DNA of 64,000 bases, from the NCBI GenBank assembly GCA_963579135.1, contig CAUZFB010000005.1, positions 14,020 through 78,019 on the forward strand, written 5' to 3'. The translations under genes were made by a program, and so were the position numbers. Positions 11,870 to 15,460 of the stretch are shown one piece after another. The notes beneath the pieces were generated by a model. The model was not told the DNA's origin. It did no database searches and worked only from the letters and a program-made list of their open reading frames with translations. The stretch is from Dehalococcoidia bacterium (GTDB lineage: Bacteria; Chloroflexota; Dehalococcoidia; Lucifugimonadales; Australimonadaceae). Positions within the stretch are counted from its first letter, which is position 1. Each line of letters begins with the position of its first letter.

Positions 11870-13624
11870 CTAACTCCTAGCAGCCGCCTCTCGCAGCATC
11901 CTCTCAGCGATATCCCCCGTCGACACAATCCCCAGGTCCCCCCCTGACCGCAGGCGGACGGCAGCTCCATTGGCCTCCGCCTCCTTGTCGCCCACGACCA
12001 GCATGTACGGAACCTTTTGCATCTGCGCGTCGCGAATCTTGGCACCCATGCGCTCGTTGCGGGCGTCGACGTGGACGCGCAGGCCAGCAGCAGCCAGCTC
12101 GTCGCGGATCTGCTCCGCGTACTCGATGTGGCGATCGGCAATGGGGATCACCTCGGCCTGGATAGGGGCGAGCCAGAGGGGGAACGCACCGCCGTAGTGC
12201 TCCACCAGCACGCCGAAAAAGCGCTCCAACGAGCCGAACAGCGCCCGGTGCACCATGTAGGGCCGGTGCTCAGCGCCGTCCTGACCCACGAAGGTGAGGT
12301 CGAACCGCTCTGGCAGGTTGAAGTCAAACTGCACTGTCGTGCACTGCCACGACCGGCCGATAGCATCCTTCACCTTGATGTCTAGCTTCGGGCCGTAGAA
12401 CGCACCGCCACCGTCGTCGACCTCATAGTCGACGTTCATCCGATCCAGCGCGCGGCGTAACGACTCCGTCGCGTGGTCCCAGTCCTCGTCGCGTCCCACC
12501 GCCTTCTCGGGCTTGGTGCTCAGGAATACGTCGTAGTCCGTGAACCCGAACGTGCCCAGCAGGTCGAACGCGAAGTCCAGCACGCCCACGACCTCGTCCT
12601 CAACCTGGTCAGGCCGGCAAAAGATGTGCGCGTCATCCTGCGTGAAGCCCCGGACGCGGAGCAACCCCTGAAGCACGCCACTGCGCTCGTAGCGGTACAC
12701 CGTCCCCAGTTCCGTCAGCCGCATAGGCAACTCGCGGTACGAACGCTTCGATGACGTGAAGACCTGGATGTGGAATGGGCAGTTCATCGGCTTGGCGAAG
12801 TACTCGTTCCCATCCACATCCATCGAGTCATACATGTTCTCGCGGTAGAAACCCAAGTGACCGGACGTCTCCCACAGCGTCGACTTTCCAATGTGTGGCG
12901 AGTACACGAAGTCGTACCCACGTTTATCGTGCTGCTCGCGCCACTCCTGCTCCATGAGCGACCTGATCCGGCCGCCCTTGGGGTGCCAGATCACCAGCCC
13001 GGGCCCCACCTGTTCTGAGGTCGAAAACAAGTCAAGCTCCCGGCCCAGCTTCCGGTGATCGCGCAGCGCCGCCTGCTCCAAACGCTCCAAATGAGCGTCC
13101 AGCGACTCCTGCGACTCCCACGCCGTGCCGTAGATGCGCTGGAGCATCTCGTTGCGCTCGTCCCCACGCCAGTACGCACCGGCGACGTTCATCAACTTGA
13201 TCGCCTTGACATCGCCGGTCGACGGCACGTGCGGTCCACGGCACAGGTCCACGAAATCACGATGCCCATACGTGGTCAACATCTCGCCCTCGGGGATGCC
13301 ATCGATGATCTCCAGCTTGAACGGCTGCCCTGCGAATCGCGCCTTCGCGTCGTCCCGCGAGAACTCCGTTTGCACGAACGGCGCATCCGCCGCGATGGAC
13401 TCCTGCATCCGCGCCTCGATCTGCTCAAGGTCCTCCGGCGTGAACGGACGCTCCACGTGGAAGTCGTAGTAGAAGCCGTCCTCGATCGCAGGCCCCACCG
13501 CGAACTGCGCACCCGGGAACATGCTGAGGACTGCCTCCGCCATCACATGCGCCGCCGAATGCCTGATCCGGAACCGTAAATCGTCCAGATCCCGCTCAGC
13601 CTGCGATTGTTCTTTTACTGGCAT
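11870..13624 (-). CDS. thrS: Threonine--tRNA ligase (no N-terminal TGS domain)
   Basis: HSAAH, DLCRGPH, RDHRKLG, KPMNCPFH, RVRGFTQDDAH, AFYGPK, HRA..GS.ERF. Confidence 0.98.
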   Translation of the reverse strand: MPVKEQSQAERDLDDLRFRIRHSAAHVMAEAVLSMFPGAQFAVGPAIEDGFYYDFHVERPFTPEDLEQIEARMQESIAADAPFVQTEFSRDDAKARFAGQPFKLEIIDGIPEGEMLTTYGHRDFVDLCRGPHVPSTGDVKAIKLMNVAGAYWRGDERNEMLQRIYGTAWESQESLDAHLERLEQAALRDHRKLGRELDLFSTSEQVGPGLVIWHPKGGRIRSLMEQEWREQHDKRGYDFVYSPHIGKSTLWETSGHLGFYRENMYDSMDVDGNEYFAKPMNCPFHIQVFTSSKRSYRELPMRLTELGTVYRYERSGVLQGLLRVRGFTQDDAHIFCRPDQVEDEVVGVLDFAFDLLGTFGFTDYDVFLSTKPEKAVGRDEDWDHATESLRRALDRMNVDYEVDDGGGAFYGPKLDIKVKDAIGRSWQCTTVQFDFNLPERFDLTFVGQDGAEHRPYMVHRALFGSLERFFGVLVEHYGGAFPLWLAPIQAEVIPIADRHIEYAEQIRDELAAAGLRVHVDARNERMGAKIRDAQMQKVPYMLVVGDKEAEANGAAVRLRSGGDLGIVSTGDIAERMLREAAARS

Positions 13625-13684
13625 ATCTTCTTCCCTTGGTTCAGCGACTCAGGCACTCGCCCGTCGCCGTTAGTTTACGAACAG

Positions 13685-13709
13685 AAAAAGGGGCGCACCA
13701 GGCGCCCCT
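13685..13709 (-). terminator. Attenuator terminator in thrS leader
   Basis: Minus strand AGGGGCGC-cuggu-GCGCCCCU-UUUU, about 60 nt upstream of the thrS start. Confidence 0.85.
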
Positions 13710-13736
13710 CAGGTCTATCTCAGCGAAACGCGCGCC

Positions 13737-13811
13737 TTATTCAGTCGTGGCCCTCGTAGTGGCCCCTGTCGTCAAGAACGTGATCCTAGTCGTCCACAAA
13801 ACGCGCATCAC
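13737..13811 (-). CDS. Thr-rich leader peptide (V/M)MRVLWTTRITFLTTGATTRATTE
   Basis: Hand translation: 9 Thr in 23 codons from ATG 13808 (in-frame GTG at 13811), stop TAA at 13737-13739, directly before the terminator and thrS. Confidence 0.8.
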   Translation of the reverse strand: MMRVLWTTRITFLTTGATTRATTE

Positions 13812-13817
13812 TCCCAG

Positions 13818-13845
13818 ATTCTACCAGCGATCCCTCCCCGTTCAA
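13818..13845 (-). promoter_or_regulatory. Sigma70-type promoter of the thrS leader
   Basis: Minus strand TTGAAC, 16-nt spacer ending in TG-g, then TAGAAT; the GTG of the leader ORF lies 6 nt downstream. Confidence 0.65.
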
Positions 13846-14326
13846 CGCCCCACAACCGAGGCGCGACGCTCCGCGAAGCCATCCTCCCCCGACAGCCTTG
13901 CTTATAACAAATGTCCATAATGCAATCGTCGCACCCGGCGTTACGCTGTTCCCGGACAACCCCTATTCCCTAATTCCCTGAGCGTAGCGCAGCGCAAGCG
14001 GAGTCCAAGAGCCGGCCCTGAGTCACACGAAGGGCCCCCTCACCGTCCCCATTTCAGGAGCTAATGAGGCCACTTTTGACCCATTTGAGGCCACCGCCAG
14101 GAAAGGCTCGAGGCTGCCTGTAAGTCAACAGTCCACGTCCCAGAAGCAAAACGAGGCGAGCAAGCCGCCTCTATCCAACCCACCCACAGCCAGCGACTGA
14201 TCAAAAGTAATCAACGGAGAATCAAAACGGATCCCCCTGTTTCCTGAGCGCAGCAGCGGCGGGCAGCGCTCGTGGGGAAGCACAATCCCGACTTCGTCAC
14301 CCTCCTCGACGAGGGGGGAGTAGAAT

Positions 14327-15460
14327 ATGGTCATGAAAGCCGTATACAACGAAGCAGCCAACCTAGCCCGCCAGAACCGCGAGTTCGTCCTCGCCACCGT
14401 CGTCAACACCAAGGGCTCCACACCCCAGAAACCCGGCGCGGCCCTACTCGTGCGCTCCGACGGCTCCACCGTGGGAACCCTCGGCGGTGGCTGCGTCGAA
14501 GGCGACATTTGGTTCGCCGCTAAAGAAGCGCTACGGGAACACACCGGCCCCATCTTCAAGAACTACTACCTCAACGAAGACATCGCTGCGCGCGATGGCC
14601 TCGTCTGCGGCGGCTCGATGTTCTTTTACATCGAGCCCTTCGAGCACTCGACCGACGTCAGCCCGCTCTCGGATGAGATTGAGCAAGCCTTCGAAGGCGG
14701 CGACTCCCTCGCAATGGCCACGGTCGTCAACCCGACCACTCTCAAGACTGGCGCGCGCATCGTCGTCCACGAAGACGGCACCACCGTCGGCTCGCTGGGC
14801 ACCGCCGAAGCCGACGCTGTTGCCATCGCGACAGCCAACGCCGTCATGCCCATGGGCAAGGCCGAGCACGTCCGCACCGCAGAGGGCGACGAGATCTTCG
14901 TCGCAGGCTTCACCTCGCCGGCAACGCTTGTCCTAGTCGGAGGAGGCCACGTGAACCTCCAGGTCGCCAAGGTCGCGCAAATGCTTGGCTTCCGCGTCTT
15001 CGTCACCGACGACCGCCCCGAATTCGCCAACCGCGAGCGCTTCCCCATGGCGGAGGAAACCGGCGTCGCGCCCTACGACAAGGGCCTTGACGCCTTCCAT
15101 ATCACCAAGAACACCGCCATCGTCATTGGCTCTAGGGGCCACCACTACGACGACCTTGCTACCGAGGCCGCCGTCCGCACGCCCGCCACCTACGTTGGCC
15201 TTCTTGGTAGCAAGCGCAAGACCGTGATGATCTACGAAGCGCTCCTCAAGCGCGGCATCAGCCCCGAGCGCCTCAAGCAGGTCCACTCGCCCATCGGCCT
15301 CGACCTAGGTGGCCGCACCCCTGAGGAGATCGCCGTCAGCATCATGGCCGAGATCATCGCCTTCCGCCACAACCGCCCCGGTGGATCCATGAAGATCGAA
15401 GAGGCCCAGGTCAACCGTCTCCTCACCAAGCTTGGCAAAGCCAAGCAAGCCAAGGCCTAG
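14327..15460 (+). CDS. XdhC/CoxI family molybdenum-cofactor chaperone (two CoxI-type N domains)
   Basis: ATVV.TKGSTP, GTLGGGCVE, LVCGG, GGGHV, DDRPEFA, YVGLLGSKRK, PIGLDLGGRTPEEIAVSI. Confidence 0.9.
   Translation: MVMKAVYNEAANLARQNREFVLATVVNTKGSTPQKPGAALLVRSDGSTVGTLGGGCVEGDIWFAAKEALREHTGPIFKNYYLNEDIAARDGLVCGGSMFFYIEPFEHSTDVSPLSDEIEQAFEGGDSLAMATVVNPTTLKTGARIVVHEDGTTVGSLGTAEADAVAIATANAVMPMGKAEHVRTAEGDEIFVAGFTSPATLVLVGGGHVNLQVAKVAQMLGFRVFVTDDRPEFANRERFPMAEETGVAPYDKGLDAFHITKNTAIVIGSRGHHYDDLATEAAVRTPATYVGLLGSKRKTVMIYEALLKRGISPERLKQVHSPIGLDLGGRTPEEIAVSIMAEIIAFRHNRPGGSMKIEEAQVNRLLTKLGKAKQAKA

Follow-up and report, generated by a model that had tools for sequence, protein, structure and literature searches.

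A candidate threonine-sensing leader-peptide attenuator upstream of thrS in a family of Dehalococcoidia

In a Dehalococcoidia bacterium of the phylum Chloroflexota (assembly GCA_963579135.1), the threonine--tRNA ligase gene thrS is preceded by a short threonine-rich open reading frame (ORF) and an intrinsic terminator that probably act together, with a probability of about 0.8, as a ribosome-mediated leader-peptide transcription attenuator sensing charged tRNA-Thr. Both lie within the 64,000-nucleotide (nt) stretch of contig CAUZFB010000005.1 (positions 14,020 to 78,019) that is called the window here; unlabelled positions are counted from its first letter. A first-pass annotation, made from the letters of the window alone, had proposed an attenuator of thrS that depends on ribosome stalling at threonine (Thr) codons. 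That proposal is supported by the occurrence of the element ahead of thrS within the family and by its absence from loci sampled outside, by the coding signature of the short ORF, by the recovery of the leader with a covariance model trained on other genera, and by the lack of a match to a T-box or any other Rfam family.

The anatomy of the leader can be read directly from the window, where its parts and the gene that they precede are arranged as follows.

13840..13845, minus strand: -35 hexamer TTGAAC, with a 16-nt spacer to the -10 box and 9/12 consensus matches.
13818..13826, minus strand: TG-extended -10 box TGgTAGAAT, in which TAGAAT occupies 13823-13818.
13737..13811, minus strand: leader ORF, with GTG at 13811-13809, ATG at 13808-13806 and the stop codon TAA at 13739-13737.
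13685..13710, minus strand: intrinsic terminator, with 5' arm GAGGGGCGC at 13710-13702, loop at 13701-13697, 3' arm at 13696-13688 and T run at 13689-13685.
11870..13624, minus strand: thrS, threonine--tRNA ligase of 584 amino acids (aa), matching NCBIfam TIGR00418 and Pfam tRNA_SAD, tRNA-synt_2b and HGTP_anticodon.

Between the -10 box and GTG stand only the six nucleotides CTGGGA, and the distance from the box to ATG is 9 nt. Counted from GTG the ORF specifies 24 aa; from ATG it comprises 23 codons and encodes the peptide MRVLWTTRITFLTTGATTRATTE, nine of whose 23 residues are Thr, grouped as four TT pairs and one single Thr (codons 6, 7, 10, 13, 14, 17, 18, 21, and 22). The codons used are ACG (five times), ACT (three times), and ACA (once), never ACC, which makes up 39.5% of Thr codons across long ORFs in the same genome. 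The commonest Thr codon is in this sense avoided by the leader of a genome that has four tRNA-Thr genes (contigs C17, C39, and C75), two with the anticodon UGU and one each with GGU and CGU. The terminator stem (13710-13688) consists of nine pairs, seven of them G-C, closed by a 5-nt loop, with a hairpin energy of -17.1 kcal/mol. Immediately downstream of the ORF, and sharing the last base of its stop codon, the hexamer AGGCGC (13737-13732) has its complement in GCGCCT (13705-13700), within the terminator 5' arm and loop. A consensus scan for sigma-70-like sites on both strands of 13000-14600 returned the leader promoter alone, against a shuffle mean of 0.3. The promoter, the GTG-ATG start, the Thr-rich ORF, the terminator, and the AGGCGC/GCGCCT match had all been described in the first-pass annotation; each is present at its position, and the anatomy as first described is confirmed. 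On the other side the neighbour is a divergent XdhC-family gene (start 14327), and because it is divergent the hairpin is not the terminator of an upstream co-directional gene. The roughly 480 nt from the leader promoter to that gene (13847-14326) contain no convincing ORF and no Rfam match.

Given that one locus says little by itself, the weight falls on comparative data. Among 289 terminator-adjacent short ORFs in the window's genome, eight have at least four Thr in 10 residues, and the lone instance in the window is therefore only moderately significant. The seven others found in this looser scan fail a strict one and resemble off-frame readings of longer sequence. The strict scan, which covered the whole 2.73-Mb genome and asked for a -10 box 5-10 nt before ATG or GTG, an ORF of 8-45 aa, a terminator, and then an ORF of at least 150 aa, gave 10 rows representing eight distinct candidates, of which the single Thr-rich one directly precedes thrS. 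The same scan found no Thr-rich leaders elsewhere in this genome, for example before Thr biosynthesis genes.

Conservation was assessed in 57 species-level genomes of the family, thrS being located in 53, and the upstream region was inspected in all 53. Fifty-two are evaluable; one genome was dropped (G011, thrS at a contig edge) and another was recovered from a second contig (G049). A genome was counted as positive when an ORF of 8-60 aa with four or more Thr in some stretch of 10 residues, and a GC hairpin plus T-tract no more than 110 nt beyond it, both lay ahead of thrS. By this test a Thr-run ORF with a terminator precedes thrS in 31 of the 52 evaluable genomes and in eight of 17 genera, distributed as follows.

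g1 (the genus of the window): 2 of 3 evaluable genomes positive.
g3: 3 of 3.
g5: 2 of 2.
g6: 17 of 21.
g7: 1 of 1.
g9: 1 of 1.
g13: 4 of 7.
g17: 1 of 1.

The nine further genera of the family, with one or two genomes each, have no positives. Since kin are not independent, the ratios should be read as a description of the distribution, not as a statistical test. The leader terminator is present in all 31 positive genomes. Across 30 related leaders the peptides contain 7-11 Thr, in runs that extend to 6-9 consecutive residues, as in MQRLTTTTTTTTTAPMG (g3), MRALTTTTATIE... (g5), MQRTAATTTTTTRTTRAAAARVRETAAVA (g6), and MNTVIGATTTTTTGPTTKATAGRALETAAVAASA (g13). Applied outside the family, the same test was passed by 0 of 93 thrS loci (14 genomes, each from a different other family of the order, plus 79 loci at greater distance), start codons at the distant loci being set by ORF extension, which may overshoot; L101, being too short, and G031 and G039, at contig edges, were left out. 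The conserved Thr-rich short ORF for which the first-pass annotation had suggested looking upstream of thrS in relatives thus exists, in the family. One outgroup locus (L033, on Dehalococcoidia metagenome-assembled contig DAOUHG010000269.1) carries an ORF with the final residues FITTTTM, a long GC hairpin, and a U-rich tail, which together span about -227 to -60 relative to thrS. As a leader outside the family it was left ambiguous: its ATG overlaps its own TAGAAT box. In a family member (G010:C9:245619-247366), thrS matches as two overlapping pieces (residues 1-294 and 291-583), which may reflect a frameshift or an assembly error, and the leader upstream is intact.

The leaders are also related in sequence. 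A covariance model, R1, was built solely from the leaders of g6, g13, g17, and g7 and searched against all 57 family genomes. Each genome with a strong match (E 1e-20 to 1e-41) has just one, and in every case it lies upstream of thrS. Further, it recovers the thrS leaders of genera absent from the model, namely g1 (the window and G002), g3, g5 (one of two), and g9, where the thrS leader is its best match; in the window's genome it has a sole match, as follows.

13683..13811, minus strand: R1 match (G000:C5:27702-27830), E = 2.3e-4.

Four weak extra matches (in G050, G011, G045, and G069) proved on inspection to be ordinary gene-end terminators. On a threonyl-tRNA synthetase (ThrRS) tree of 29 loci, leader presence requires five changes, whereas label shuffles average 8.6 and only 2 of 500 are as low. 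Because the leader sequence is shared, a single origin followed by several losses is the simplest reading of this pattern, not a proven one. In the same tree the proteins of g6, g16, and g17 sit on a long branch (0.65), away from the remaining family and the order. Nothing in Rfam accounts for the element. A cmscan of 13300-14300 with E up to 10 found no T-box and no other family, apart from a chance sraA match on the other strand, and gathering-level matches were absent from the thrS loci of 20 relatives (92 kb), in keeping with the earlier statement that no T-box is present. Likewise, with E up to 10 the window gave no match to the Rfam threonine operon leader, the enterobacterial thrL family.

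The short ORF appears to evolve as a translated frame, a conclusion supported by several features of the aligned leaders. In an alignment (A1) of 22 leaders from g6, g13, g17, and g7, all four distinct gap runs within the ORF are multiples of three (9, 6, 3, and 9 columns), compared with 2 of 13 past the earliest stop. Thr positions use all four codons (ACG 149, ACC 58, ACT 41, and ACA 27; n=275), and synonymous Thr-codon differences are seen between close species. In each of 30 leaders the earliest Thr falls at codon 3-8. The window's 'ACT ACG AGG GCC ACG' aligns with 'ACT ACG AGG GCC GCG' of g6; outside the Thr runs, peptides of different genera have little in common. A TAnnnT box of the TGnTAnAAT type lies 6-10 nt, mostly 9 nt, before the ATG of the short ORF in 27 of 30 tabulated leader loci. 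In the remaining three, a box with that spacing was not detected (L008 and L144) or an internal start was picked by the script (L001). Such spacing would fit a 5' leader of 0-3 nt, that is, a leaderless or near-leaderless transcript. In one genus (g3) the divergent XdhC-family gene begins a few tens of bases from the leader -10 box.

A mechanism can be proposed on this basis. Judging by the spacing, transcription would begin a few bases past TGgTAGAAT, making the short ORF leaderless or nearly so, and its 23 codons would be translated while RNA polymerase is still transcribing the leader. When Thr-tRNA is plentiful, the ribosome would reach the stop codon and cover the adjacent AGGCGC, leaving the GC hairpin with its U-tract to form. 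When no ribosome is loaded, the AGGCGC segment would instead pair with the 5' end of the RNA, and the hairpin and U-tract would again form. In either state transcription would halt ahead of thrS. When Thr-tRNA is scarce, the ribosome would stall at the early Thr codons near the 5' end, and the stop-proximal segment would be expected to base-pair with the hairpin's 5' arm and loop, blocking the terminator and permitting thrS to be transcribed; the outcome would be a higher capacity to charge tRNA-Thr. The two segments assigned to this switch are candidates, as follows.

13791..13808, minus strand: candidate region 1, the 5' end of the transcript, pairing with 13745-13728 in the ribosome-free fold.
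13728..13745, minus strand: candidate region 2, containing the antiterminator 5' arm AGGCGC (13737-13732) and GUUUC, and pairing with 13710-13700.

Several observations are consistent with this arrangement. An antiterminator helix between a segment at or just past the stop codon and the terminator 5' arm and loop is possible in every leader (-12.5 to -19.4 kcal/mol). Measured from the end of the stop codon, its arm begins at -5 to 0 nt in g1, g3, g5, g7, g9, g13, and g17, and at +4 to +8 in most leaders of g6. In G002, of the same genus as the window, AGGCGC:GCGCCU is replaced by GUGCGC:GCGCAC, two positions being changed on both sides, and the antiterminator energy stands out from shuffles in this genome (0.3%), in g3 (about 2%), and in G006 (5%), and only there. 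Constrained folding of the window leader, which the first-pass annotation had recommended, gives three coherent states. With no ribosome, nt 1-18 pair with 64-81, AGGCGC included, and the terminator forms. With a ribosome at the stop codon, the terminator also forms. On a nascent transcript with the ribosome stalled at T6-T7, the 5' end is covered and the AGGCGC segment pairs with the terminator 5' arm. The duplex of regions 1 and 2 in the window has an energy of -17.8 kcal/mol, matched by 6% of shuffles. In constrained folds of g3 the Thr run itself is region 1 and pairs with the region that would otherwise build the antiterminator, a textbook 1:2 / 2:3 / 3:4 layout. Across A1, the cells of each helix are paired in 99% of cases for the terminator, 93% for an internal hairpin, 94% for the antiterminator, and about 80% for the 5'-end pairing. 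The internal hairpin, seen in the four genera of A1 (columns 53-65 with 82-94), comprises 12-13 base pairs, GGCCGCGGCUGC...GCAGCCGUGGCC, in the 3' half of the short ORF; one pair varies among U-A, U-G, and G-U, and the hairpin is missing from the window's shorter leader. It could serve as a polymerase pause hairpin.

Other observations weigh against the proposed switch, or at least against its generality. The energy of the window's antiterminator (-15.6 kcal/mol) is equalled by 10% of shuffled upstream segments, and in g6 and g13 leaders the corresponding energy is reached by 19-75% of shuffles, all in a GC-rich setting. Antiterminator arms pair with their own terminators at an average of -16.1 kcal/mol, compared with -15.1 kcal/mol for terminators of other genera. 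Covariation in A1 is weak, the helices being compatible with the alignment and mostly invariant, and no antiterminator pair is changed on both sides. Taken whole, the window's leader has no exceptional stability (z = -1.5; equalled or bettered by 13 of 200 shuffles). Pairing between the 5' end and region 2 lacks conservation from genus to genus and is no better than in shuffles in G002, g7, g9, g13, and g17. When the ribosome is placed at T14, T18, or T22 of the window's leader, the minimum-energy fold has no antiterminator, and with a stall at T21-T22 part of AGGCGC would lie under the ribosome. Natural variation points the same way. The leader is missing from 21 of the 52 family genomes. G001 (L005), a further member of the window's genus, still has promoter, terminator, and conserved spacer (CGTTTCGCTGAGATAGACC), whereas its short ORF has only three Thr (MIHILLVMITRMGWPLTGPPKAGPTFR). 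Three g6 genomes (G051, G054, and G058; loci L117, L129, and L132) are without the leader, TGnTAGAAT standing 7-8 nt before the ATG of thrS.

The original antiterminator proposal is borne out only in part. Its placement at the stop codon recurs in seven of eight genera and two compensatory changes are found in G002, but its energy mostly does not exceed that of shuffles. Similarly, the covarying stems sought in relatives turned out to be compatible helices with weak covariation. The variant loci are informative about history. G001, in which the antiterminator arm is degraded and matches only four bases, resembles an attenuator that has decayed while its terminator stayed intact, thrS itself looks leaderless in G051, G054, and G058, and terminator-like remnants are kept in G060 and G068. 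Together these variants indicate that the element is dispensable and has been lost repeatedly.

The same facts nourish the alternative that survives best, namely that the hairpin is a constitutive partial terminator or an RNA-stabilising element and that translation of the ORF reports general translation capacity, through initiation or elongation rate or Rho access, and not Thr-tRNA. In most leaders neither the antiterminator nor region 1 rises above shuffles, and G001, G060, and G068 retain a terminator-like hairpin without a Thr-rich ORF, as this alternative would allow. It leaves the Thr enrichment unexplained, however: runs of up to nine, varying synonymously, ahead of thrS only, and with the contrast between 31/52 and 0/93. 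It is accordingly considered improbable. Slighter still is the prospect that ThrRS regulates its own gene by binding the leader RNA, as at the E. coli thrS operator (a mimic of the tRNA-Thr anticodon arm beside the ribosome-binding site), the ACN-rich stretch being an RNA motif and not a series of codons. Synthetase autoregulation of thrS is established in E. coli, and ACG is over-represented among Thr codons of the leaders (54% versus 38% genome-wide). Yet indels in the Thr stretch are all in frame, Thr positions vary synonymously, and the stretch is in frame with the start codon that follows the -10 box by 6-10 nt at the 27 loci noted above. Further, the element ends in a terminator 64 nt ahead of the thrS start and not at the ribosome-binding site, and the sole hairpin predicted between terminator and thrS start has a 4-nt loop that does not look anticodon-like, no dedicated search for anticodon-like loops having been made. 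Weakest is the notion that the ORF, which does have its own promoter and terminator, is an independent small-protein gene with thrS transcribed from a separate promoter, given that no second promoter-like site was detected between terminator and thrS (one site in 13000-14600), that the peptides share little between genera beyond their Thr runs, and that linkage to thrS is invariant, the model matching once per genome and always there.

Attenuation by a Thr-sensing leader peptide is thus the preferred account, and a second element in the same genome bears on it. The other standout of the strict scan, outside the window, is an ORF encoding (V)MSFALSQNCVCCCGP (G000:C9:26581-26692; L151:282-393), which starts with GTGATG past a TATCAT box and is followed by a hairpin and T7 ahead of a NirA/Sir-type sulfite/nitrite reductase gene (Pfam NIR_SIR, 1e-43). 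Cysteine (Cys)-rich ORFs, with at least three Cys in eight residues (CCCC, CACCC, or CCC), occur upstream of the orthologous reductase gene at 22 of 30 loci, a count that includes the window's own genome along with others of the family and of other families of the order, and that considers Cys-rich ORFs only and not terminators. These ORFs form a candidate family of Cys-sensing attenuators, and this lineage appears to make habitual use of amino-acid-sensing leader peptides, so that the thrS element has a higher prior probability. A much more tentative generalization, on balance doubtful, is that leaderless or near-leaderless leader peptides might provide general amino-acid sensing in this order of Chloroflexota, in the role that T-boxes have in Firmicutes (Thr for thrS, Cys for sulfite reductase), with the 5' terminus of the RNA, held by an initiating or early-stalled 70S ribosome, as the first pairing element. 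If true, the switch would integrate leaderless-mRNA initiation with elongation at codons 3-12.

How the element relates to known systems can be stated with some precision. Control of thrS has two familiar forms, the T-box riboswitch of Firmicutes and the translational operator of E. coli. Both share with the present element the regulated gene and the signal (tRNA-Thr charging or ThrRS level), and both differ from it in relying on a direct tRNA-binding RNA or a protein-binding operator without a sensing ORF. The E. coli thrL leader peptide of thrABC is likewise Thr-rich and obeys a terminator/antiterminator logic, but it controls biosynthesis genes and not thrS, also senses Ile, and has a leader and a ribosome-binding site ahead of its ORF. 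A comparative study of attenuation in amino acid and aminoacyl-tRNA operons across bacteria was reportedly carried out by Lopatovskaya et al. in 2010, and it may hold a related prediction; in the literature searched, no description of thrS leader-peptide attenuation in Chloroflexi was found, and the remark of the first-pass annotation that it knew of none in this lineage has held in that literature.

Closer parallels come from synthetase genes and from Actinobacteria. Classical attenuators of synthetase genes include pheST in gamma-proteobacteria and trpS and leuS in Streptomyces (PMC1262725); there too a leader peptide with cognate codons and a terminator act on a synthetase gene, giving feedback on tRNA charging. 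The element described here differs from these in amino acid, gene, and phylum, and in that its ORF is apparently leaderless, the first regulatory codons falling within 3-8 codons of the 5' end. In S. lividans TK24, a leaderless thrL before thrS has been proposed as a Thr-dependent attenuator, along with leuL-leuS, trpL-trpS, and alaL-alaS (PMC8079986). It too is a short ORF with Thr codons, described as leaderless and located directly upstream of the threonine-tRNA ligase gene. Its peptide, MKRVRPFLETTPGFVPAR, has two Thr only, with one hairpin, no U-rich stretch, and no clear terminator (PMC8079986). In a comparison by description, the leaders considered here have 7-11 Thr, runs of up to nine, and a canonical terminator, and they occur in eight genera of another phylum. 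In mycobacteria, leaderless polycysteine short ORFs are described as attenuators of downstream genes (bioRxiv 10.1101/834739). The resemblance lies in leaderless-type short ORFs with runs of a single amino acid; in this genome a direct parallel would seem to be the Cys-rich ORF ahead of the sulfite reductase gene, whereas the thrS element differs in amino acid and target. The kind of regulation is therefore already known, from pheST and from the leuS, trpS, and thrS leaders of Streptomyces; what is new is the phylum. The interpretation given in the first-pass annotation is largely right, and in its sequence features the element agrees with a classical leader-peptide attenuator, with the antiterminator role and the physiological response as candidate properties.

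The regulated gene itself is unambiguous. Its product scores 728 bits against TIGR00418, for which the cutoff is 383.65, and thrS is single-copy in the 2.73-Mb assembly; the two other matches, considered as a possible second copy, are weak paralogous class II or editing domains. Among named relatives, those closest to this thrS (60-65% identity) come from metagenome bins of Dehalococcoidia and other Chloroflexota. An N-terminal TGS domain was not detected by Pfam in the 584-aa protein.

For thrS regulation, a textbook subject, two very different solutions are known, namely the T-box and protein autoregulation, and leader-peptide attenuation is a thinly documented third. Support for the thrS leader comes from numerous genomes in a phylum that is largely uncultivated and has almost no described cis-regulatory RNA; the leader is absent from Rfam and could become a family there. 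It also marks an unannotated ORF, predicted to be translated, that gene callers have overlooked. Together, the thrS and Cys-rich leaders suggest that leaderless sensor ORFs extend beyond Actinobacteria. Finally, the presence, absence, and decay variants that coexist inside single genera offer ready-made comparisons through which the mechanism may be studied.

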